A stretch of DNA of 64,000 nt from Parcubacteria group bacterium (GTDB lineage Bacteria > Patescibacteriota > Minisyncoccia > Phycocordibacterales > CSBR16-119). Below, in pieces: positions 2,665 to 18,671 of the stretch. The DNA lies in the NCBI GenBank assembly GCA_943356745.1, contig CALRFT010000002.1, forward strand, positions 7,124 to 71,123. Reading direction: 5' to 3'. The stretch's first letter is position 1, and every line of letters starts with the position of its first letter. The notes beneath the pieces were generated by a model. The model had not been told where the DNA came from. It did no database searches and saw nothing but the letters and a program-made list of their open reading frames with translations. Made by a program: the position numbers and the translations under genes.

Positions 2665-3840
2665 ATGTCAAAAAATATTACAGTTGGTATTGATATTGGA
2701 AGTCACGAAACACGCGTGATGGTTGTTGAGTATGCAGATGATGGACAAAGAAAAACAACACGAATCATTGGGATGGGATCTTCTGAAACAAAAGGTGTTC
2801 GACATGGGTATGTAGTAAACCCGGAACAAGCATCTGAATCAATCCAAAAAGCAGTATCTCAAGCAGAGCATGCTTCAGGAATCAGAATAAAACAAGCTGT
2901 TATCTCAATCTCAGGAATCAGCCTCGCTTCTCACATTGGTACTGGATCTTCAATTATCTCAAAAGCAGATAACGAAGTAACTCATCTCGATATACAAAAA
3001 GCTCTCAACGACGCAGAAAGCAAACTTTCTGTTCCAAATAAGCAAATCATCGAAACTCTTGTTCTTGAATACAAACTCGATGCAAAACGTGTCTTTGGAC
3101 GTCCAGAAGGAATGAAAGGAATCAAACTTGATGTTACTGTTTTGTATGTAGCAGCTCTGAAGCAACATATTGACGATCTTATTCTTTCAGTTAACCAAGC
3201 AGGGGTTGATGTCATCGATGTTGTTCCGAGTCCTCTTGCTACAAGTTTTGTTACTCTTTCTGAAAAACAAAAAACTGCAGGTTGTATGCTTCTTGATATT
3301 GGTGCTGAAACAGTTTCCCTTACTGTTTTTGAAGATAACCAAATCATCTCACTTCATGTATTTACCATTGGATCAAATGACATAACAAACGACATCGCAC
3401 TTGGTCTCAAAATACCACTTCCAGAAGCTGAAGAAATAAAACAAGGTGTCTTGATTGGAAATGTTCCCCAAGGAGATGTTGAAACAATCATAGAAGCAAG
3501 ACTTACAGATATTTTTGAACTTGTTCAAAAATATCTCAAAAAGATTAAACGAGACGGACTCTTGCCTGCTGGAGTTGTTATAACAGGTGGAGGATCTCAA
3601 ATCCCAATCACTGAAACTCTCGCAAGAAAAATCCTGAATGTTCCCGCAAGTCTTGCTCGTATTCCAACAAATAGCAAGAAAAATCCTCTTCTTAAGGACA
3701 TGAGCTGGCTTGTCGTATATGGCCTTTGTATGTCAAAACGATACACAGCAAGTGGAAACACAAGCTACAACCCTGTTTCAAAAACACTTTCTCATATAGG
3801 ACAATTCTTCAAATCCATCATTAAGCAGTTGAAGCCGTAA
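2665..3840 (+). CDS. ftsA: Cell division protein FtsA
   Basis: Actin-like ATPase motifs: VGIDIGSHETRV, ISISG, VITGGGSQIP. Sits immediately upstream of ftsZ. Confidence 0.85.
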   Translation: MSKNITVGIDIGSHETRVMVVEYADDGQRKTTRIIGMGSSETKGVRHGYVVNPEQASESIQKAVSQAEHASGIRIKQAVISISGISLASHIGTGSSIISKADNEVTHLDIQKALNDAESKLSVPNKQIIETLVLEYKLDAKRVFGRPEGMKGIKLDVTVLYVAALKQHIDDLILSVNQAGVDVIDVVPSPLATSFVTLSEKQKTAGCMLLDIGAETVSLTVFEDNQIISLHVFTIGSNDITNDIALGLKIPLPEAEEIKQGVLIGNVPQGDVETIIEARLTDIFELVQKYLKKIKRDGLLPAGVVITGGGSQIPITETLARKILNVPASLARIPTNSKKNPLLKDMSWLVVYGLCMSKRYTASGNTSYNPVSKTLSHIGQFFKSIIKQLKP

Positions 3841-10006: not shown

Positions 10007-10537
10007 CTAGCATAAAAACCCACAAATCGAAAACACCTCGCAAGAGGTGTTTTTGATTTGTATAGCCATACGTTCACGAACCCCTTTCAAAAACATATCA
10101 GGATTATTTTTAATTTCTTTTTTTAGCTCTTCTTCCGTAAACCACCTTATTTCAGCGACCTCATCTTCTTGTATTGTAAAATCATTAAATCCAGAAGGTA
10201 ATGTTAACAAAAATTCCTGACTAAAATATTGATACTTTGTACTAACTCTTCTCTTCTTTCCAAGAATAGGCTTTATGTTTACAAGTCCTAATTCTTCTTG
10301 AGACTCTTTTATAATATTTTCTTCATAAGTTTCATTTTCTTCAACAGTTCCCGCAACTGCTGGTCCCCATTTACCTGGATCATGTTTTTTATGAAGTGCC
10401 CGTTTTGCAAGTAATATTTTTCCATCGGTATCAGTGATCCACAAGTAAGAAACACGGTAGATAGAATTCTCATCACGACCGTCTCTTTCTTTGTAATCTA
10501 TAATGTTGTCATTTTCATCAACTATCGGTATTTTCAT
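10007..10537 (-). CDS. NUDIX hydrolase
   Basis: Nudix box GTVEENETYEENIIKESQEELGL (Gx5Ex7REuxEExGu). The last ~15 codons are encoded by a palindromic terminator hairpin. Confidence 0.75.
   Translation of the reverse strand: MKIPIVDENDNIIDYKERDGRDENSIYRVSYLWITDTDGKILLAKRALHKKHDPGKWGPAVAGTVEENETYEENIIKESQEELGLVNIKPILGKKRRVSTKYQYFSQEFLLTLPSGFNDFTIQEDEVAEIRWFTEEELKKEIKNNPDMFLKGVRERMAIQIKNTSCEVFSICGFLC
10012..10051. terminator. Palindromic bidirectional terminator-like hairpin (copy 1)
   Basis: acaaatcgaaaacacctc-gcaa-gaggtgtttttgatttgt. ~18 bp stem with A/T runs on both sides. Confidence 0.5.
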
Positions 10538-10685
10538 GTTTAAATATTATCACAAAAACAGCTCCGAAAGGAGCTGTTTTGTATGCTTCTCGTGCTAGCA
10601 CGAAATGGTGACCCCTCTCCGAGGACTGCGTTTTACATACAATCGCTTTGCTCTTGTGTAAAACGGGAGCCTCCGGTACCCTCCG

Positions 10686-10733
10686 GGTCACAAATCAAAA
10701 ACACCTCTTGCGAGGTGTTTTTGATTTGTGACC
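10686..10733. terminator. Palindromic bidirectional terminator-like hairpin (copy 2, near-identical to 10012-10051)
   Basis: ggtcacaaatcaaaaacacctc-ttgc-gaggtgtttttgatttgtgacc. Perfect 22 bp stem. Confidence 0.5.
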
Positions 10734-10842
10734 CCAAGACCTGGATTTCAGAACTTGTTAAGGAAAGTTTAACAATAAAATCCAGCATAAGCGATCTCCA
10801 AGGTATCTTTGTGAATAGCCCCTATAATTTAGCTAGGCAAAG

Positions 10843-11493
10843 TTAATCTTTTTGCTTTCCGATCAGTTTTGCAAATGATCTTGCAATTGGTTCACCTAGA
10901 TGAACCACAAATAAACCGTCAATAGAAAGCTCCTCTTTTATGTCCCAAAAGAAACGCTCGATCCTTTTAGTTATTCTTCTCAGATATCTTGGGTCAAATT
11001 GTACAGGTCTATTAATCTGCATATGACCATTCTCATGGATGTTTAGTTTGGTATTAAAGTGAGCAACCTGGTTACCTCTGGCTCGAACAAGAGGATTGAT
11101 GCTGAGTTTTATGGCTTTCAATCTTTTTAGATATCTATTCTTAATCTTTACATCTTGTATATGATCTACCAGTGTAAAAAGAGAGGATGTTTGCTTATCT
11201 TCATCTAATATATTTCCCAAAATGATGATGGCATCACGAGAATAAACATCCCATAAAGAAATGACAAATGTGGTTGTAATCTTAGGATTGGAGTCTTTGA
11301 CGATAAAATCGTCCTTGTGTTTAGCTAGATACTGCAGTAACTCAGCATGATCAAGCAATCGACTTGTACTACTAAAAATATAATCTGTTATATTTCTTAG
11401 CTTTCTTTCTTCACTTATTGTTACCTTTTTCTTTTGGCTCATATTAATTAGTTGGAATAAGTTTATCAGTCCAAGACTTCTTATCTTCCTCAT
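10843..11493 (-). CDS. Uncharacterised protein co-operonic with the Gabija-like pair. Has an R-x5-H motif (possible HEPN-like RNase). The likely true start is the Met at 11442.
   Basis: The ATG at 11442 lies 1 nt after the upstream helicase stop (TAA-T-ATG). Motif VRARGNQVAHF is at 11059-11079. No recognisable family otherwise. Confidence 0.5.
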   Translation of the reverse strand: MRKIRSLGLINLFQLINMSQKKKVTISEERKLRNITDYIFSSTSRLLDHAELLQYLAKHKDDFIVKDSNPKITTTFVISLWDVYSRDAIIILGNILDEDKQTSSLFTLVDHIQDVKIKNRYLKRLKAIKLSINPLVRARGNQVAHFNTKLNIHENGHMQINRPVQFDPRYLRRITKRIERFFWDIKEELSIDGLFVVHLGEPIARSFAKLIGKQKD

Positions 11494-13168
11494 CAGGTAC
11501 TGCGATTACTAGAACTTTGCTCGGTCGAGAGATTGCTACATACACATTCCTCAACTCCTCATCCTGAGACACGCTACTAGTTTCAAGAAGAGTTTTATAG
11601 TTTTTAGAAACTTTCTTCTTCAGGAATAGTAGGACAGCTTCGAATGTTTCTCCTTTGACTTTATGAATGGTGCTTAATCTATAGTCACGCTGAATATTGT
11701 CCGTGTATTCTTGGGGAAATACACGAGAAAATTCGAGTTCTTTTGCCTCTGTGTTGTATGTGAAAGTGATAGGAATTTCAATTGATTTGAGCTGTTCACT
11801 GGCTGATTGAAGCCAAGCGCCTAGTTTAATATTTGTAAGCGGAAGAACTGCGAGTATAGCCTTGATTTCTTTTCTGAACTCAACAAAACCACGTTCATCA
11901 TGGAAATCATCCAAATCTTTTTCCGAGCAATAGTGTGCTTTCTTTAGAAATTTAAAGTAGCCCTTTTCTATATACTTTATTCCTCGATTGTAATCTTTGT
12001 TGTCTATGAGAAACTTGCCGATAGCAAAATCTCTTGCATAAGGACAACTATTTAACCAAGGCTTAATTTCTACGGTAAATGTGCCAGGAATAAAAAATCC
12101 TTTCGATCTAGCTAAGACTACAGTGGTTTTGGGTGTAATTTCTATGTCATTGGCTTTACATTTCTCTATAAAGTTCTTTACGATATCTTTTGTTTGTCCG
12201 TCAGTGTATGTGATAACCTCTGGCATACATTCAAAGTCCTTTACATCAACATTCGTTGCCAATATCTTGTTATCTCCCAATGAAGACAGGTTGTATACGG
12301 CATTACAAATTTTTTCTGAACTTCTCCAACTTTCATCAAGCACAATAGAGTTATCTTTCCAAAGTACTTGCTTCTCGATGAAAAGCTCTGGCTTTGCATT
12401 ATTCCATTCGAAGATTGCTTGATCAGGATCACCAACTAGCATTACATTTTGATCTGCATTTTCCGCTATTAATAATTCGATTATCTTCATTTGTATGTCG
12501 GTCGTATCCTGTGCCTCATCGACAATTAACCAAGGAAACTTCGAGGCAAGACTTTTTCTTACTGCGGGATATTTTTCAAGAATGACCATTGCGAAATAGT
12601 TTGCATCTGACTGAGTTGCGTAACCTTTCTTAGTAAACGCATCTTTCATCTGCTTCAATTTGAGATAGTTCTTATTTTCATCTCCGCCCTGGTTTAGTTT
12701 CGGCGGGAACGCTCCATGAAAATACTTTCTTTCTTTTCCATAAAGATCGCCATTTATTTCGTAACTTACTTTGTCAAAATAGTAAGGTGCGTCCTGGTCA
12801 TTCATACCCAGTCCCCATACACCATATGGTTCTCCAACCATAACGGGTCTTTGGTCGCAACCTAATACTAAATGCCCAAATGGAAGAAAGATGAATTTAT
12901 TTATAAAGCTATCAATTGTTCCGAGAAAGTGAGGGTAAGATACTTTTGTATTAAAATCTTCAGCACACTTCTTTTCGATTTCTTGCCAAGCAGTGTTAGT
13001 AAAAGAGATCGTGGCAATCCCTTGGTGTGGCAAAGTCCAATTTGAAATTAGCTTTGAAAGCTTTGCTGAAACACAGTATGTCTTTCCGCTCCCAGGACAG
13101 GCACGAACGACAAATTTACCCGTTCTATCGAGGACAACTTTTTGTTTGGTTGATAATTTCTCATACAT
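11444..13168 (-). CDS. gajB: UvrD/PcrA-like SF1 DNA helicase (Gabija GajB-like)
   Basis: Walker A ACPGSGKT, motif II LIVDEAQD, motif III VGDPDQAIFEW, motif V IHKVKGETFE, motif VI VYVAISRP. The start overlaps the stop of the upstream OLD-family gene. Confidence 0.8.
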   Translation of the reverse strand: MYEKLSTKQKVVLDRTGKFVVRACPGSGKTYCVSAKLSKLISNWTLPHQGIATISFTNTAWQEIEKKCAEDFNTKVSYPHFLGTIDSFINKFIFLPFGHLVLGCDQRPVMVGEPYGVWGLGMNDQDAPYYFDKVSYEINGDLYGKERKYFHGAFPPKLNQGGDENKNYLKLKQMKDAFTKKGYATQSDANYFAMVILEKYPAVRKSLASKFPWLIVDEAQDTTDIQMKIIELLIAENADQNVMLVGDPDQAIFEWNNAKPELFIEKQVLWKDNSIVLDESWRSSEKICNAVYNLSSLGDNKILATNVDVKDFECMPEVITYTDGQTKDIVKNFIEKCKANDIEITPKTTVVLARSKGFFIPGTFTVEIKPWLNSCPYARDFAIGKFLIDNKDYNRGIKYIEKGYFKFLKKAHYCSEKDLDDFHDERGFVEFRKEIKAILAVLPLTNIKLGAWLQSASEQLKSIEIPITFTYNTEAKELEFSRVFPQEYTDNIQRDYRLSTIHKVKGETFEAVLLFLKKKVSKNYKTLLETSSVSQDEELRNVYVAISRPSKVLVIAVPDEEDKKSWTDKLIPTN

Positions 13169-13171
13169 AGA

Positions 13172-14926
13172 TTATTCATTTTTTACAGCATACTTTATGG
13201 CATCCTGAATATAAGTTGGAATAACAAAATTTGTCAGAGCACCCGCATCTTCTTCAAGTCGAATTGATAACCGATGCGCCAACTCTGATTTGCCCTGCTG
13301 GTCTGCCACTTTTTTAGCAAAGTTTTTTGCATATGTCGGAATGTCAGCGTCCACAGTAATGGTAGTTTTTGGATGAAATTCTTTATATATCTCTAAAAGA
13401 ATTTGTCTGTTGAAATCACTTGCCAAGAATAGTTCGTATTCAAAAGTGACTGCACCAACGAAGACTTTCAGTAAGTTATTTTCCATTGCCTTTATCTTTG
13501 TTGCCCTTGGTGATCCATCGTCATCGTCCTTTGTTCTATCGTCATCAGTGATAATCGAACATCTATTTTTAAGACCTTTTTCTGGTTTTGCAGAATTGTA
13601 TAACTTTGCAAAATGTTCAAACGCAATTCCGTTTATATTTACAATTTCACAACCTGCTTTCTCCACATCGTAATCCGCACCCATTTTTCTACTAAAAACT
13701 GGAAGAAGTAGGGCTTCAGAAATACCCTCTACAAATATGACGCTATTTGCAAAGAATAACTGTGACTTCGTAACATCTAAGAACTTGTGCAGAAATTTTT
13801 TATTCGCTTCGTCTAGGTCTGAGTTTCTTAATGAAAGTGCAGATATTTCACCAGCTTGATGTTGCAAAACGTTGATTGAATTTAAATCTGCCTTAGCAGT
13901 AATTGTTGGAGAGTGTGAAGAAACAAAAATCTGAAAGTCCTTGTCTGTAGCAAGTTCATTTAGGTAGTTAAAAAATAGGTCTTGGAGCTGAGGATGGAGG
14001 TGAGCTTCTGGTTCTTCAATCAAGAGAGAAAAGTACGCTTCTGGTTCAATCTCTTTTTTCTGTTTTATGTCACCTAAAACTGTGGCTATATAAATCAAGT
14101 TATTATAACCAAGACCGTTTTGCCAAATGCTTAAATATTTCTGTTCATTCGATGGATCGAGTTTAAGTACTTCTTCTGAAAAGAATGGTAACTGAACATG
14201 TAAATTATTTAAGATATCACCAAATTCTAGTCCGCTAAAAGTAACCTCAATCTCTTGCTTCTTATCAAGAAAGGTTGTTCTGCCAAGATGCTCGTTTACT
14301 TTTTCCTTACCCTTAGTAATAAAATCTTTCCATTTGTCACCTTTAAGTACGGTTCTGACCTCTGTTGCTAAAGCTTGCTTCTCAGCTTCAGTATGAGATT
14401 GTGTATCACCGTACAAACGAGCCAATTTGCTATCTCTAAATGGTTTCAAAAATTGTTCTGCGTCACGTAGGGCATCGAGATGAACATAATTTATGAGCTG
14501 TAAAATTTCTGTAGAGATTTGCTGTCCCTCATTTGTTCCGCCCCAGACTTTGTATTTCAGTTTATTTTTCTCATCAAGGTAGTATTTTAAATGAAGCTGT
14601 AAATCTGCCTTATCGTTCTCATCTATAGCCAATAGCTCTCTGTATATAACAGGCTCGAGATCATCTTCTATTTCAAAATGCAGATCAAAAATCGTTTCAT
14701 TCTTTGCATCTTTAGGATCAGACTTGTTTATGTAAAAATCACATTCCTTTGAGAAGTAAATATCTCTCCTGATACTTCCGTATCCAAGGCAAAGTCGTAA
14801 GGCATCAATGATTGCAGTTTTACCTGCATTGTTTTCTCCAATAAGAATATTTAACCCCTTGTTAAAATCTAAGGAGAGTTCTTTGATTGATCTAAATCTA
14901 TTAATTTTTAGTTCTTTTATATACAT
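13172..14926 (-). CDS. gajA: OLD-family ABC ATPase plus TOPRIM nuclease (Gabija GajA-like / class 2 OLD)
   Basis: N-terminus IKELKINRFRSIKELSLDFNKGLNILIGENNAGKTAIIDAL (Walker A). LLIEEPEAHLHPQLQ (Walker B/H-loop typical of OLD/GajA). C-terminal TOPRIM motifs VIFVEGISE and IITDDD. Confidence 0.85.
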   Translation of the reverse strand: MYIKELKINRFRSIKELSLDFNKGLNILIGENNAGKTAIIDALRLCLGYGSIRRDIYFSKECDFYINKSDPKDAKNETIFDLHFEIEDDLEPVIYRELLAIDENDKADLQLHLKYYLDEKNKLKYKVWGGTNEGQQISTEILQLINYVHLDALRDAEQFLKPFRDSKLARLYGDTQSHTEAEKQALATEVRTVLKGDKWKDFITKGKEKVNEHLGRTTFLDKKQEIEVTFSGLEFGDILNNLHVQLPFFSEEVLKLDPSNEQKYLSIWQNGLGYNNLIYIATVLGDIKQKKEIEPEAYFSLLIEEPEAHLHPQLQDLFFNYLNELATDKDFQIFVSSHSPTITAKADLNSINVLQHQAGEISALSLRNSDLDEANKKFLHKFLDVTKSQLFFANSVIFVEGISEALLLPVFSRKMGADYDVEKAGCEIVNINGIAFEHFAKLYNSAKPEKGLKNRCSIITDDDRTKDDDDGSPRATKIKAMENNLLKVFVGAVTFEYELFLASDFNRQILLEIYKEFHPKTTITVDADIPTYAKNFAKKVADQQGKSELAHRLSIRLEEDAGALTNFVIPTYIQDAIKYAVKNE

Positions 14927-15010
14927 GCATCTTCAAGCCCAACCGTTGAGGTTAGTAATCGCATTTTAACATCTTTGGAGCATAAAAGCCTATCCTCCAA
15001 TTCATTTTTT

Positions 15011-15233
15011 TGCTAGAATGAGATTACAGTTGAATACAGTCGCCTAACCCTTGGCATCGAAAACCAAGGCATGGCGCAAAACCCGCTAAAGTGTAAAAAC
15101 CTCCTCGTCAGGAGTCACTTTAGCGGTCATACCTGGAAACGGGTATGGGTTCAGCCGAAAGGTTGGATCGCAACTGGCGAGGAGATTTTTGCATCTTCTC
15201 GGATTATTAGTCTCATAAAAACCGCTAAAGTTT
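15011..15233 (+). ncRNA. GC-rich structured 5' leader (candidate cis-regulatory RNA or riboswitch-like element) upstream of the 141-aa ORF
   Basis: Extended -10-like TGCTAGAAT at 15011-15019. Nested hairpins: ccttgg...ccaagg; ccgctaaagtg...cactttagcgg enclosing ctcct-cgtc-aggag; cagcc-gaaa-ggttg. A third copy of ccgctaaagt at 15222-15231 abuts the start codon and gives mutually exclusive pairing. Confidence 0.4.
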
Positions 15234-15659
15234 ATGAATACAAATATCTCTTCCTGGAGTACGGGAAGAAAGTTAGTCGTTTTTTTATTAGTTCCCATCT
15301 TCATCATCGTTGTCATAGGAATGGCAAACAGTCCAACTCCTGCTTCTGTTCCCAAGACGGCAGAAGAGATCGCATACCAGAAGAAACATGACTTTGCTTC
15401 ACTGGCGAAGATGAATGTCGAGATGACGCTCAAAGCTCCCTCTACAGCGAAGTTCAACACTTCACCAGTAGTGAAAGAAGAGAATGGTATCTACTCGATC
15501 AGCTCTTGGGTTGATAGTGAAAATAGCTACGGTGCAATGATCCGAAGTCAGTGGTCAGTAAAGGCTCATTACATCGGAGGGGACACTGAAGATGAGATCG
15601 GGACAGGTGCAAACTGGATCATCGATGAGTTCATTTTTGATGGGAAAAAGGTGAAATAA
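15234..15659 (+). CDS. Hypothetical small exported or membrane-anchored protein (island cargo)
   Basis: 141 aa with an N-terminal hydrophobic helix (LVVFLLVPIFIIVVIGMA). No recognisable domain. Confidence 0.5.
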   Translation: MNTNISSWSTGRKLVVFLLVPIFIIVVIGMANSPTPASVPKTAEEIAYQKKHDFASLAKMNVEMTLKAPSTAKFNTSPVVKEENGIYSISSWVDSENSYGAMIRSQWSVKAHYIGGDTEDEIGTGANWIIDEFIFDGKKVK

Positions 15660-15660
15660 G

Positions 15661-15900
15661 TGCAAGTACATTAACAGTGCTGAAAACAGTGCTAGAGGGT
15701 GAAAAACAGGCGAAAAAACACGCAAAACGGTAAGTAATGGATTTGGACAAAAACAGTGGAAAAAACAGTGAAAACGGCATCAAAAACACAGTCTCGAAAT
15801 GTGCATTAACAGCGACAAAAACAGCGACAGACTCTCTAGATTGATTTGACCAAAAACAGCGTGGAAACAGTGTGAGAAGCATCAATTTAGGGGTCTAAAA
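15661..15900. repeat. Iteron-like array: at least 10 copies of AAAACAG(T/C)G and close variants in ~240 bp
   Basis: aaaacagtgcta, aaaacaggcg, aaaacagtgg, aaaacagtgaaaacgg, aaaacacagtc, taacagcgac, aaaacagcgac, aaaacagcgtgg, aaacagtgtgag. Located directly upstream of the 232-aa ORF. Confidence 0.55.
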
Positions 15901-15916
15901 TGCTAGTATAAAGATT

Positions 15917-16615
15917 ATGGATTTAAGGACATCATTACAAGTTATTAACCGTGACAATATCTCAGATATTGAGAAGTTTTTAGCGTATGTACTTGATGCC
16001 TCTACTCAGGAACTTAAAGAAGCTCAGAAGAGAACTTTAGCGATCGTATACCACAGACTGTGGTGGTATCGAGATCAGGAGATCAAACGCTTTTTCCCAA
16101 AGACAGAGAAGTTTCAGGAGTATGTACCGTTTGTGTTTTCAGATCACAAGCTAACTGCTGAGCAGGATTTAAAAAACTTATTACTGAACAATAAAGATCG
16201 ATTTGGAAATCCAGACTACCCAGCTCTATTAAAGTTATTTAAATCGGATATCTCTGAGACCCTATCTTTCTTCACAAGCAAAGAAAACAGAACTGTAGAG
16301 GGTACACAGCTAATTCTTCGTTACAACAATTATGGAAAGTTTTGGCATGGAGACATAACAAAATCTTGCTATCCCATCAATTCTAAAAGTAAGCGGTTCA
16401 AGTTACTAAGGTATCTAATTGAAAACGAGGGCTTTCAGGACACTAAGGATATCTTGGCTTCTGTGGGTGGCAAAGATACACACTCTATTCGTACTGCAGT
16501 TAAAGAGATGAGATTGCTTATAGAGAAAAAACTTGATTTAGACGATGTTATTCTCTCTAATCCACCCGATGGATATGCTCTAAATCCTAAATATAAAGTT
16601 GTTTTTGAGAAGTAG
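15917..16615 (+). CDS. Hypothetical protein with a C-terminal winged-helix-like segment. Possible replication initiator or regulator of the island.
   Basis: 232 aa. C-terminal KRFKLLRYLIENEGFQDTKDILASVGG...IRTAVKEMR resembles a wHTH. Preceded by the iteron-like array. Confidence 0.4.
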   Translation: MDLRTSLQVINRDNISDIEKFLAYVLDASTQELKEAQKRTLAIVYHRLWWYRDQEIKRFFPKTEKFQEYVPFVFSDHKLTAEQDLKNLLLNNKDRFGNPDYPALLKLFKSDISETLSFFTSKENRTVEGTQLILRYNNYGKFWHGDITKSCYPINSKSKRFKLLRYLIENEGFQDTKDILASVGGKDTHSIRTAVKEMRLLIEKKLDLDDVILSNPPDGYALNPKYKVVFEK

Positions 16616-16730
16616 CTCTTTCGTAGTGTTGATATCTGTATTTGTTCCTTATTAAATAAACGTTTTCTGATGCAAAAAGCTACCCGAGCCTCATGGACGA
16701 ACTACGGGGTCAGGTTGGTATCGTTCGACT

Positions 16731-16916
16731 ATGGAAGTCGAGCAACTATTCTCAAAAGAAGAAATACAGAACATTTCCGATCTTGGGAATGTGCTACGGG
16801 AGATACGCTCCAGGCTTAAACGTGAGGGTGTCTCAATAGATGAAGCTCGCAAAAAGTTACGAGCCACACGAAAAAGAACTTATGCCTCAAAACAAAGACA
16901 AAAACAATCCGCATAA
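16731..16916 (+). CDS. Small basic protein upstream of and overlapping the recombinase gene. Possible DNA-binding protein or recombination directionality factor.
   Basis: 61 aa, K/R-rich C-terminus. Its position relative to the serine recombinase gene. Confidence 0.25.
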   Translation: MEVEQLFSKEEIQNISDLGNVLREIRSRLKREGVSIDEARKKLRATRKRTYASKQRQKQSA

Positions 16917-18552
16917 AAATGAGTATCTGATCTACTCACGTAAGAGTACGGACGATGCTATTAATCAAAAGAACTCCATTTCCTATCAAGTAGTGGAGGC
17001 ACTTAAATATGCAAAGCATGAGAGACTGCCGATTGCGAAAGTTGATATTGAGGGATTTTGTACAGAGGGCATTATCCGTGAAAGACATACGGCATTTAAA
17101 GAAGACGATAATCTTAATTTTAGTGATGATGGATATATAAAATATCGTATACAAAGACCCAAGTTTAAACGCCTAGTCGATGCTCTGGTTAAAGGAGAAT
17201 ACAAAGGCGTAATTTTTTTATGTTGGGATCGTGCCAGTCGCAACAAGAGTGATAACAGTGTTATTTCAAAGATGATAAATCTTGGAGTTGATGTACTATT
17301 TGTTCAGGCGACATACGAAAAAACTAGCTCTGGTGGTCTTCATATGAATATCGATGGTGTCTTCTCTGAGCATTACTCACTGGTGATTAGAGAGAAAGTA
17401 ACGAACACGAGAAAGAAAATGAGAGACGAGGGTATCTGCACTTACAAAGCCCCGATAGGATATTTAAATAATGGCGATCCTCGCCACAAGCCTTTTGACC
17501 CAGATCGTTCACCACTCGTAAAACAACTTTTTGAAAAATACGCTGAGGGAAATTGGACACTTGCTGATCTTGCACGTTGGGCTAATGAGAACGGTTTGAT
17601 CACTGTACCTGCTCGTCGAAAGAGAACGGAGCAGGAAATGTTGATGGACGATGAGGTTACAATAGATGCGGTCTCTCGTCCTATGACGTTTAATCATATC
17701 CATAAGATATTAACTAACCAGTTCTATATAGGTAAAGTATTAGGAAACGAAAACCAATGGGTGAAAAGTGTTAGTCATGCCCCGCTTGTTGATGAAGATT
17801 TATTTTATAGAGTTCAGGGATTGCTCCGTTCAAAGAAAGTTAGTGTCCACTACAAAACCAAGCCTTATTTCGCCTACAGAGGGCTTGTACGGTGTGGAGA
17901 GTGCCACAGAGTGTATTCGCCTTACATGCAGAAAGGTATAGCGTATTATGGCGCACGATGCATTCTTGGCTGTAAGAATAAGAACCGTAATATAAACGCT
18001 AATTTCATTGAGGAGAAAGTGGGATCAAAGCTATTTAACCTCAATTTCACTAAAGAAGAATTGGCTGATATCGATCGTCAGACCAGAGGTGAAGTTGCTA
18101 CTCTCGATGATAAGCGCAGGGGGCGTTTAAATGTTATTGATCAAGAGAAACGAAAGCTTCGAGATGATCTATCGTACTTACGCAACAATAAATTGTCTCT
18201 GCTTAAAAATCAGGTCTATAGCCATGAAGAATATCTTGAACAAGAGAGTGACATTGCTTCTAAACTTCAAAAGCTGAGGAATGAAGAAGAAGCATCGGAT
18301 GTTTCGATGCAAGAAGTCATTAGAGATGTGGTTCTACTTTCCGAACTCCTAGAAGACGCTTATTTGTATTACTCTTTGGCAAATCCAACAGAAAAGCAAC
18401 AAATAATAACGAAAGTCTTTTCCGAACTTACATTATTTGGTAAAACCCTTGATTACCAATGTAAAAACGGTTTTAAAGTCTTCGAGAAGAAGAAAAATAT
18501 CTTGTGTGACCCTACGGAGAATCGAACTCCGATTTCCAGGATGAAAACCTGA
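16840..18552 (+). CDS. Large serine recombinase (integrase)
   Basis: Catalytic motif LIYSRKSTDDAINQKNSISYQ (YxRxST...SxxxQ). RPKFKRLVDALVKGEYKGVIFLCWDRASRN (DRLSR-like). Recombinase domain, zinc ribbon CGECHRV...CILGC and a C-terminal coiled coil. The last ~15 codons are encoded by the tRNA-Glu 3' half. Confidence 0.85.
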   Translation: MKLAKSYEPHEKELMPQNKDKNNPHKNEYLIYSRKSTDDAINQKNSISYQVVEALKYAKHERLPIAKVDIEGFCTEGIIRERHTAFKEDDNLNFSDDGYIKYRIQRPKFKRLVDALVKGEYKGVIFLCWDRASRNKSDNSVISKMINLGVDVLFVQATYEKTSSGGLHMNIDGVFSEHYSLVIREKVTNTRKKMRDEGICTYKAPIGYLNNGDPRHKPFDPDRSPLVKQLFEKYAEGNWTLADLARWANENGLITVPARRKRTEQEMLMDDEVTIDAVSRPMTFNHIHKILTNQFYIGKVLGNENQWVKSVSHAPLVDEDLFYRVQGLLRSKKVSVHYKTKPYFAYRGLVRCGECHRVYSPYMQKGIAYYGARCILGCKNKNRNINANFIEEKVGSKLFNLNFTKEELADIDRQTRGEVATLDDKRRGRLNVIDQEKRKLRDDLSYLRNNKLSLLKNQVYSHEEYLEQESDIASKLQKLRNEEEASDVSMQEVIRDVVLLSELLEDAYLYYSLANPTEKQQIITKVFSELTLFGKTLDYQCKNGFKVFEKKKNILCDPTENRTPISRMKT

Positions 18553-18578
18553 TGTCCTAACCGTTAGACGATAGGGCC
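18507..18578 (-). tRNA. tRNA-Glu (anticodon TTC)
   Basis: Cloverleaf GGCCCTA-TC-GTCT-AACGGTT-AGGAC-A-TCAGG-TTTTCAT-CCTGG-AAAT-CGGAG-TTCGATT-CTCCG-TAGGGTC-A. Anticodon loop TTTTCAT. T-loop GTTCGATTC. Confidence 0.8.
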
Positions 18579-18624
18579 AATATAACTTGTGACTTTCCAG
18601 AAATTTTGTTATTTTCAGGTTTTT

Positions 18625-18671
18625 GAAAACCTGATGTCCGCTTATCATCTTTCTGGTTAGACGATAGGGCC
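18625..18671 (-). pseudogene. Partial tandem copy of the tRNA-Glu 5' half (acceptor 5' strand to anticodon stem) with an altered D-loop
   Basis: gaaaacctgatgtcc...ggttagacgatagggcc matches 18543-18578 but carries a 15-nt replacement in the D-loop region. No T-arm or 3' acceptor strand. Confidence 0.5.

Follow-up and report, generated by a model that had tools for sequence, protein, structure and literature searches.

To our knowledge, characterised serine integrases have their attP outside the coding sequence and require a separate factor for directionality. A different arrangement is that of the 'suicidal' integrases of the SSV1 type (SSV1, SSV2, pTN3 and pT26-2), in which attP lies in the integrase gene, a tRNA gene is the target, integration parts the integrase gene between the two ends of the element and excision restores it (PMC8371274). 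Integrases that disrupt their own gene have been described as exclusively archaeal and as tyrosine recombinases, and the split as probably disabling (PMC8371274). The Islander authors, for their part, wrote that no tRNA-targeting serine integrase was known (PMC4383910). Here we analyse a stretch of 64,000 nucleotides (the window) from a Parcubacteria group bacterium (assembly GCA_943356745.1, contig CALRFT010000002.1), in which a 7.8-kb element sits at the extreme 3' end of a tRNA-Glu(UUC) gene. We put at almost nine in ten the probability that this element is mobilised by a serine recombinase that has attP inside its own coding sequence, the gene being split on integration. An original prediction, made from the letters of this DNA, had proposed that a large serine recombinase and defence cargo make up an integrative island at tRNA-Glu, and this is supported by repeats at the ends of the island and by empty sites in relatives.

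The gene of the large serine recombinase (16840-18552, + strand) is found in its integrated, truncated form and encodes 570 aa, as judged from Pfam, homologues and invariant residues. Its open reading frame (ORF) covers the 3' 47 nt of an intact tRNA-Glu(UUC) gene (anticodon TTC) lying on the opposite (−) strand, at 18506-18578 according to ARAGORN or 18507-18578 according to Rfam (61 bits); this tRNA is the integration target and supplies the right half of attB. ARAGORN, Rfam and Pfam agree in this with the original prediction, which had the recombinase running into a complete tRNA-Glu. Pfam places a Resolvase domain (PF00239, E 4.5e-13) and a Recombinase domain (PF07508, E 9.8e-14) in the protein. 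The YSRKST and DRASRN motifs claimed for it can both be read in the translation, and R34, S36, T37, D38, D130, R131, R134 and N135 are invariant across 38 homologues. So are four cysteines (C352, C355, C374 and C378) that account for the zinc ribbon claimed earlier, and the window recombinase retains every invariant residue of the family. The coiled coil, claimed as well, is a long one (helices 387-495) in the AlphaFold2 (AF2) model of P0053, a homologue 53% identical to the window protein and not that protein itself. The top Foldseek matches of this model were the SPbeta, PhiC31, Bxb1 and LI integrases (E 1e-15 to 1e-9). By its sequence, and by its fold as seen through the homologue, the enzyme reads as a large serine integrase, for which attP x attB catalysis is predicted. 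Homologues are numerous (539 proteins at E <= 1e-10 among 8,000 candidates scored), and no relatives more than 28% identical to the recombinase were present in IMG/VR, in INPHARED phages or in PLSDB plasmids.

The C-terminus of the protein is where it departs from its intact relatives: its native sequence comprises residues 1-558, and the final 12 (TENRTPISRMKT) translate the antisense strand of the tRNA. The missing end was found at the other side of the island. The 8-mer TGTGACCC is present at both island ends in identical codon phase (TGT GAC CC-). Its left copy (attL core, 10727-10734, + strand) is the longest string common to both junctions, and its right copy (attR core, 18505-18512, + strand) holds recombinase codons C556-D557-P558 together with the last bases of the tRNA. 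The island hence spans 10727-18512, with 7,778 bp between the repeat copies. Immediately to the right of the left TGTGACCC, and with the codon phase kept, the + strand encodes KTWISELVKESLTIKSSISDLQGIFVNSPYNLARQS followed by a stop (10735-10846), that is, the displaced last 36 codons of the recombinase. A hidden Markov model (HMM) built from the tails of 34 intact homologues matches positions 10724-10807 with 36.2 bits (E 6.4e-9). When 16840-18512 is joined to 10735-10846, an in-frame protein of 594 aa results, whose alignment with five intact homologues stops no more than 1-13 residues short of their C-termini. From this, the crossover appears to lie inside the recombinase's own codons C556-D557-P558, and integration would have removed the last 36 codons. 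The recombinase ORF enters the tRNA because the attachment site is inside the recombinase gene and integration splits that gene, and the left end of the island could be fixed because the displaced C-terminal piece marks it.

These ends agree in part with those proposed earlier. The short crossover core that had been expected to be common to 10500-10750 and the tRNA end is TGTGACCC, at 10727 and 18505. The left end, placed by the original prediction at one of two candidate hairpins, coincides with the right arm of the second, while the start of the island lies about 170 bp further in than had been given; the right limit of 18671 did not hold, the actual right end being at 18505-18512. The hairpin in question (10685-10734, neither strand) is a 23-bp perfect inverted repeat whose right arm ends in the attL core, and we interpret it as the host terminator that originally stood directly after tRNA-Glu. 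The tRNA's own terminator is now 7.8 kb distant. A terminator scan for a substitute gave nothing above shuffled sequences, and read-through from tRNA-Glu would run antisense to the 3' end of the recombinase gene. No displaced copy of the 3' half of the tRNA was found in the 64-kb window; none is detectable because the repeat covers only the last 6-7 nt of the tRNA. Base composition showed no contrast between the island and its surroundings. Here the crossover can be narrowed to the 8-bp TGTGACCC, and in a pair of sister contigs (L178 and L012, see below) to the 6-bp TTGTGA; conserved quasi-palindromic motifs lie about 21 bp either side of it, and a dyad-symmetry scan for the central dinucleotide gave no clear peak. 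The predicted parental junctions of the island are AAAAATATCTTGTGTGACCCCAAGACCTGGATTTCAG for attP and GGTGTTTTTGATTTGTGACCCTACGGAGAATCGAAC for attB.

The mechanism that we propose is as follows. In its circular form, the element would make the 594-aa enzyme, which would recombine the internal attP (TGTGACCC) with the tRNA 3' end. Because the tRNA's last bases fall within the identity block, this gene would be left unchanged wherever the exchange takes place. The body of the recombinase, with all catalytic and DNA-binding domains, would stay at the right end and read through 12 antisense-tRNA codons, while its last 36 codons would be moved to the left end of the island. After integration, the only enzyme that could be produced would have 558 native and 12 junk residues, with the catalytic, recombinase, zinc-ribbon and coiled-coil parts kept, and excision would rejoin the pieces in frame to give the 594-aa enzyme again.

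The same ends could in principle belong to a conventional island, with attP outside the gene, an incidental run-on of the ORF into the tRNA and a chance ORF as the left 'tail'. The core common to both ends is only 8 bp, serine integrases need no long homology and no circular form of this island was recovered, all of which suits such an island. The tail scores 36 bits, though, and completes the protein end to end, which speaks against a chance ORF, and the comparison with relatives bears on the question too.

The split-gene anatomy is general in the family. We scanned species-representative genomes with an alignment-based search and obtained 217 loci, of which 80 were kept; a single-protein query had given no relatives. 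Among the 120 best homologues, 34 end in a tail of the form ...C/G-D/A-P-x-x-W-[LI]-S-E-[LA]...S-I-x-[DE]-L..., and most of the others end like the window protein, in peptides such as CDPTGNRTPI or CDPTENRTPISRMKT, which are antisense-tRNA translations. The recombinase ORF ends inside an opposite-strand tRNA in 50 of the 80 loci, nearly all of them from Patescibacteria. The targets were mostly tRNA-Glu (TTC in 26 loci, CTC in 14), followed by tRNA-Ala (4), tRNA-Arg (2), tRNA-Leu (2), tRNA-Trp (1) and tRNA-Val (1), and the crossover codons follow the target: CDP/TGTGACCC for tRNA-Glu, TGCGGGC for tRNA-Trp and TGTGGGCA for tRNA-Leu. Where at least 9 kb of upstream flank was available (32 tRNA-ended loci), a displaced tail was present within the flank in half of the cases (16/32). 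All 32 displaced tails scoring at least 19 bits were on the recombinase strand, 29 upstream and three downstream, with none on the other strand. Each begins at a C/G-D-P codon after unrelated DNA, and all those detected are uninterrupted through the conserved motif (a detection by HMM that favours intact pieces). Cores of 6-15 bp at the tRNA 3' end were found in at least 12 loci, with element sizes of 6.4-11.3 kb. An arrangement that recurs in independent assemblies with a strand bias of 32 to 0 again speaks against an incidental run-on.

Some loci hold more than one tail. In three Bacteroidota loci an intact recombinase is followed, 1.7-2.5 kb downstream, by a second tail, and the left end of two Patescibacteria elements holds an array of 3-4 tails with spacings of 0.6-1.3 kb (multiple-tail loci: L024, 3-2250; L034, 3325-6180; L027, 7867 and 9608; L044, 4192 and 6682; L076, 11606 and 13980). 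Tandem accretion or cassette-like insertion at the internal att site may have produced them.

Both states exist for near-identical enzymes. Three clusters at 90% identity hold tRNA-fused and intact-tail members (P0076/P0243, P0074/P0282 and P0079/P0310). One of these proteins, P0243, is encoded on a 13.6-kb Joint Genome Institute (JGI) contig, L178, which repeats with a period of 8,991 bp and has two intact copies of the recombinase, so that it reads as a circle or a tandem multimer. Its attP (...CTTGCTGTTTGTGAACCCATTGCGTGGCTTTCAGAAC...) is identical to the attR of L012 up to TTTGTGA and 98% identical to the attL of L012 from TGTGAACCC onward. The integrated L012 element also matches another 6.6 kb of L178, at 90.8% identity. 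L178 and L012 together provide a complete attP/attL/attR set for a sister element, with the crossover inside TTGTGA. For a conventional island, neither the two forms within 90% clusters nor a set of sites that puts the crossover inside the ORF would be expected, and we regard that explanation as very improbable.

Empty sites were found in two relatives, neither of the same species as the window. In L085, whose TsaD is 77% identical, the order FtsZ...Pyr_redox...tRNA-Glu...TsaD is kept, without recombinase and without the defence genes (Gabija, see below). Downstream of the identical tRNA-Glu it has a terminator hairpin and then 'gtatt TGTGACCC TACGG', to be compared with 'tgatt TGTGACCC' at 10722-10734 of the window. 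The second empty site, on JGI contig L175, was found in JGI metagenomes with a degenerate pattern able to match attP, attB, attL or attR. In that contig nothing separates the hairpin GGGGTCACAAAACAAAAACACCTGCA/TGCAGGTGTTTTTGTTTTGTGACCCC from the 3' end of tRNA-Glu; the window hairpin has the same architecture, but the island separates it from tRNA-Glu. The original prediction had named two findings that would tell against it. One, a synteny conserved in relatives with no empty-site alleles, does not hold given L085 and L175, and the other, a recombinase pseudogene devoid of att-like repeats, is at odds with the invariant residues kept and the att-type repeats found.

We also considered that the contig could be a chimera, joining a plasmid-borne recombinase to a chromosomal tRNA by misassembly. 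Metagenome contigs do break at this tRNA, as in L083. The window is part of a 518,649-bp European Nucleotide Archive (ENA) metagenome contig, and a second contig shows the same neighbourhood; fifty independent loci from many studies have the same junction type, and both junctions here are reciprocal and in frame. The chance that misassembly made this locus is close to nil.

Several observations nevertheless weigh against a recombinase gene split by integration. The 8-bp repeat is not significant by itself, and the case for the ends is made because of its position and the coding evidence beside it. For this very island, neither an excised circle nor an empty-site allele turned up, and the one scan of JGI metagenomes with a degenerate att pattern returned only a single, foreign attB, that of L175. 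The relative with a 97% identical TsaD (L083) was uninformative, its contig breaking inside the tRNA. The L178 repeat units are only 95.5% identical, which makes a tandem array and a mixed-strain circle indistinguishable. On long chromosomal contigs, some 17-20 loci carry an intact recombinase without a tRNA close by; they come mostly from outside Patescibacteria (Chitinophagaceae, Kordiimonas, Verrucomicrobiae, Acidobacteriota and Hyphomicrobiales), and three of them are the loci with a second tail downstream. Finally, the window island is without the ~455-aa, 168-aa, 205-aa and 78-82-aa genes of sister elements.

These genes seem to form the core of the sister elements. A conserved protein of ~455 aa is encoded 0.4-1.7 kb upstream of the recombinase, with 1-3 small ORFs between, in 10 of 18 delimited sister elements (L004, 7707-9071; L007, 8213-9580; L010, 7057-8448; L012, 6958-8331; L178, 6959-8329; L176, 428-1774; and others). 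It is accompanied by conserved ORFs of 168 aa, 205 aa and 78-82 aa, the smallest of which abuts the recombinase start (in L176, for instance, at 2991-3239). Pfam gave nothing for the ~455-aa core protein or for the small ORF abutting the recombinase; the latter could be an ordinary directionality factor. Some delimited sister elements carry Prim-Pol, RepSA/REP_ORF2 or D5_N replication proteins, and two intact-form homologues lie on ~34-kb contigs with TrwB/TraG-type ATPases, ArdC, helix-turn-helix (HTH) proteins and methyltransferases. Cargo is variable: peptidoglycan-binding surface proteins, methyltransferases, an EcoRI system and ImuB/UmuC-type genes were all seen. By this gene content, the family is one of small integrative, plasmid-like elements. 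The cargo of the window island is essentially not conserved in the 80 sister loci, and only the recombinase, the tail and a structured RNA named LOOT (see below) are common to it and its relatives. Since the core genes are missing, the window island may be a reduced, non-autonomous derivative.

We infer that this copy could still excise and that its changed C-terminus could alter how the enzyme behaves. The tail removed by integration forms two helices in the homologue model (540-549 and 551-569, with block means of the predicted local distance difference test, pLDDT, of 75 and 89), and its conservation at the protein level reaches far past what an att half-site would normally span. The first motif of the tail, WLSEL, encoded by GGCTTTCAGAAC, may double as the right half-site of attP. 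The possible consequences of losing the tail are none at all, an inactive lock or a changed directionality, and the present data do not discriminate among them.

If the split inactivated or locked the recombinase, the anatomy would be as we describe it and the island a fixed relic, leaving only through an intact copy acting in trans, or never. Neither an excised form nor a same-species empty allele was seen, and the core genes of sister elements are missing, as one would expect of a relic; the archaeal 'suicidal' integrases set a precedent, having been described in this way (PMC8371274). On the other hand, neither the recombinase ORF nor the 36-codon tail is disrupted, the invariant residues are kept, and every recognisable domain remains in one polypeptide, unlike in SSV1-type splits. 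The uninterrupted tails of sister loci also suggest continued use, even though detection by HMM favours intact pieces, and their state argues that excision and re-use happen. A fixed relic is possible, if unlikely.

At the other extreme, the split could be a directionality switch: the 594-aa form, made only from the circle, would integrate, the 570-aa form, made only from the chromosome, would be competent for attL x attR, and the tail would replace a directionality factor. The enzymes of the two topological states differ only in the tail, which is predicted as two helices and conserved beyond an att half-site, and Pfam and PADLOC revealed no recognisable directionality factor in the island. 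Changes in the C-terminal region of PhiC31 integrase reportedly unlock attL x attR. Against this, the argument is drawn from sequence and a homologue's model, sister elements may encode a directionality factor of the usual kind in their 78-82-aa ORF, and the conservation of the tail (WLSEL, GGCTTTCAGAAC) may partly reflect its role as right half-site of attP. We consider such a switch rather unlikely.

The cargo begins with the defence operon that the original prediction had noticed to the left of the recombinase, and which PADLOC and Pfam allow to be identified as a Gabija system. GajA, an OLD-family ATPase with TOPRIM (13172-14926, − strand; PADLOC E 3.7e-157; Pfam AAA_15 and OLD-like_TOPRIM), and GajB, a UvrD-like helicase (11444-13168, − strand; PADLOC E 6.3e-179; Pfam UvrD-helicase E 2.8e-31), are encoded 3 bp apart on the same strand, and both PADLOC matches are near full-length. 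A third gene of the operon (10843-11493, − strand; called start 11442, 199 aa) overlaps the GajB stop. Its product is HEPN-like (Pfam HEPN_AbiU2, E 0.0011, below cut-off), has no PADLOC match and may serve this Gabija variant as an accessory effector.

Between the divergent GajA and small-protein genes lies what had been called a structured leader, now recognised as the LOOT RNA (Rfam RF03000; 15041-15169, + strand), with 84.1 bits against a gathering score of 46.4 and 112 bits in a purpose-built covariance model. LOOT recurs in 26 sister loci besides the window (L003, L007-L011, L015, L017, L023-L025, L028, L030, L037, L041, L043, L049, L051, L057, L060, L068, L069, L072, L077, L078 and L082), and 20 of the 50 tRNA-integrated loci are among those that have it. 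Pairing holds for 95.9% of cells over these 27 copies, against 28-42% in slid controls, and compensatory double changes occur at 25 of 29 pairs. The RNA usually occupies a divergent intergenic region 0-80 nt (in a few cases up to ~320 nt) before a variable cargo gene, and is antisense to the recombinase in most loci. Ten of the genes that follow it were read: several encode secreted or membrane-type proteins, several have a hydrophobic N-terminal segment in their product, and two encode DNA methyltransferases. This orphan RNA is a recurrent component of these recombinase elements.

In the window, the first gene 3' of LOOT (15234-15659, + strand) encodes, from its ORF translation, a 141-aa protein with an N-terminal hydrophobic segment and no Pfam or PADLOC match. 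It is followed at 15666-15874 (neither strand) by short repeats upstream of the next gene. The iterons of the original prediction do exist as repeats, yet they are imperfect, made of AAAACAG[T/C]G-type units of 11-12 nt and three copies of a 31-nt unit (repeat-finder families D1, D6, D9 and D15; three short arrays in Tandem Repeats Finder, TRF). The 232-aa protein encoded next (15917-16615, + strand) had been called winged helix-turn-helix (wHTH)-like; a C-terminal winged helix is matched weakly, at a level below cut-off (Pfam Trans_reg_C, E 6.7e-4). The protein has one weak relative, in L078, and may be the element's regulator or replication protein. Outside the island the flanks are housekeeping genes, as had been stated: PRAI-like, NUDIX and VTT/DedA on the left and TsaD on the right.

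The tsaD-linked tRNA-Glu is a hot spot, because a different large serine recombinase ends in it as well. In a relative with a 67% identical TsaD, a 523-aa recombinase that carries a Zn_ribbon_recom domain also has its C-terminus, ...VCDPTENRTPISRMKT, inside this tRNA, so that unrelated recombinase lineages share the same tRNA-Glu crossover. It occupies the tRNA site in L087-L092 (for instance L087, 8120-9691; L088, 7952-9523; L092, 311-1882); its gene is uncalled in three of the six assemblies shown, among them L088, where the ORF is intact. The left end of its element in L087 was searched for, and no second TGTGACCC occurred within 10 kb.

Other traces of change surround the site. A partial second tRNA-Glu 5' half (18625-18671, − strand) is found 46 bp upstream of the real tRNA, from which it does not differ in the acceptor and D stems or in the anticodon stem up to position 37; its D-loop is swapped for 16 nt, and its anticodon arm forms a perfect 8-bp hairpin. 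The 97% relative has it too (L083, 71-121), and L085 does not. A crossover at the 3' end does not account for this copy, which could be a relic of another integration or of a duplication. L083 also has an extra 160-aa gene (226-708) between the pseudo-tRNA half and tsaD that the window is without, another small indel at the hot spot. On the left side, a 41-bp palindromic terminator-like hairpin has just two copies in the 64 kb (10021-10061 and 10689-10730), which stand inverted to each other on either side of the NUDIX gene, with 98% complementarity, and a distant NUDIX homologue is cargo of the sister element L012. Because of the paired inverted hairpins and of this homologue, the NUDIX segment might have been left behind by an earlier insertion at this tRNA end.

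What is new here is the split-gene mechanism in serine integrases, its breadth and the association with LOOT. In the literature that we searched, though not exhaustively, no account of a serine integrase whose own ORF contains attP was found, so that a prior description is possible. The family is common, with its 539 proteins and 217 loci in species-representative genomes, and it contradicts, as written, both the statement that self-disruption is restricted to Archaea (PMC8371274) and the one that no serine integrase is known to target tRNA genes (PMC4383910). It offers a natural experiment on serine-integrase directionality, relevant to genome engineering, in which the same enzyme is found with or without a 36-residue tail depending on topology. 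In genomes of Patescibacteria, the displaced tail is a simple sequence marker for delimiting islands. An orphan RNA is now placed in a defined mobile-element context, and Gabija is found carried on such an element in a bacterium with a reduced genome. If true, a C-terminal switch would be a form of directionality control without a separate factor. More broadly, and as speculation that we would not expect to hold in full, this widespread and mainly Patescibacterial family of integrases would encode the integration state in its own C-terminus with no separate factor, the tail-less form differing from the full-length one in directionality or activity, with LOOT as an element-encoded regulatory RNA.

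Set beside known systems, the window recombinase is like PhiC31, Bxb1, A118/LI, SPbeta and TndX in its resolvase, recombinase and zinc-ribbon domains and its coiled coil, and its gene lies beside att as in characterised large serine integrases, with att sites that likewise appear short and to have little common sequence. It is not close to any characterised enzyme and differs from them in having attP inside the ORF, a tRNA 3' end as target and an extra C-terminal tail predicted to form two helices. A precedent for tRNA targeting by serine enzymes reportedly exists in the small serine recombinase of phage phiRSM, whose attB is in a tRNA-Ser. Cluster G and related mycobacteriophages (BPs and Brujita) are said to sense their integrated state through an attP in the 3' end of a gene, which yields state-dependent C-termini and integration-dependent immunity; there, reportedly, the split gene is the repressor, the integrase is a tyrosine enzyme and a degradation tag is involved, whereas here the recombinase itself is split. 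Islander-type tyrosine islands resemble this one: an intact tRNA marks one of their ends and a repeat of the tRNA's 3' end the other, the integrase is adjacent to the tRNA, and defence genes are among their cargo. The difference is that the window repeat covers just 6-7 nt of the tRNA. The actinomycete integrative and conjugative elements (AICEs) of the pSAM2 type are likewise small, integrate in tRNA genes and carry plasmid-type replication genes, as sister elements do (RepSA/REP_ORF2-like or Prim-Pol); the two intact-recombinase contigs have TrwB-type ATPases and ArdC. pSAM2, however, uses a tyrosine integrase and Xis, and the window island is without such replication or transfer genes. The SSV1-type enzymes are archaeal tyrosine recombinases and the window enzyme is a bacterial large serine recombinase; their split is described as probably disabling the enzyme, whereas the one in the window removes only the last 36 of 594 residues and leaves the recognisable domains together. 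The window recombinase works like the self-splitting integrases of the SSV1 type and is not a member of that group, having serine-recombinase domains and hosts in Patescibacteria and other bacteria.

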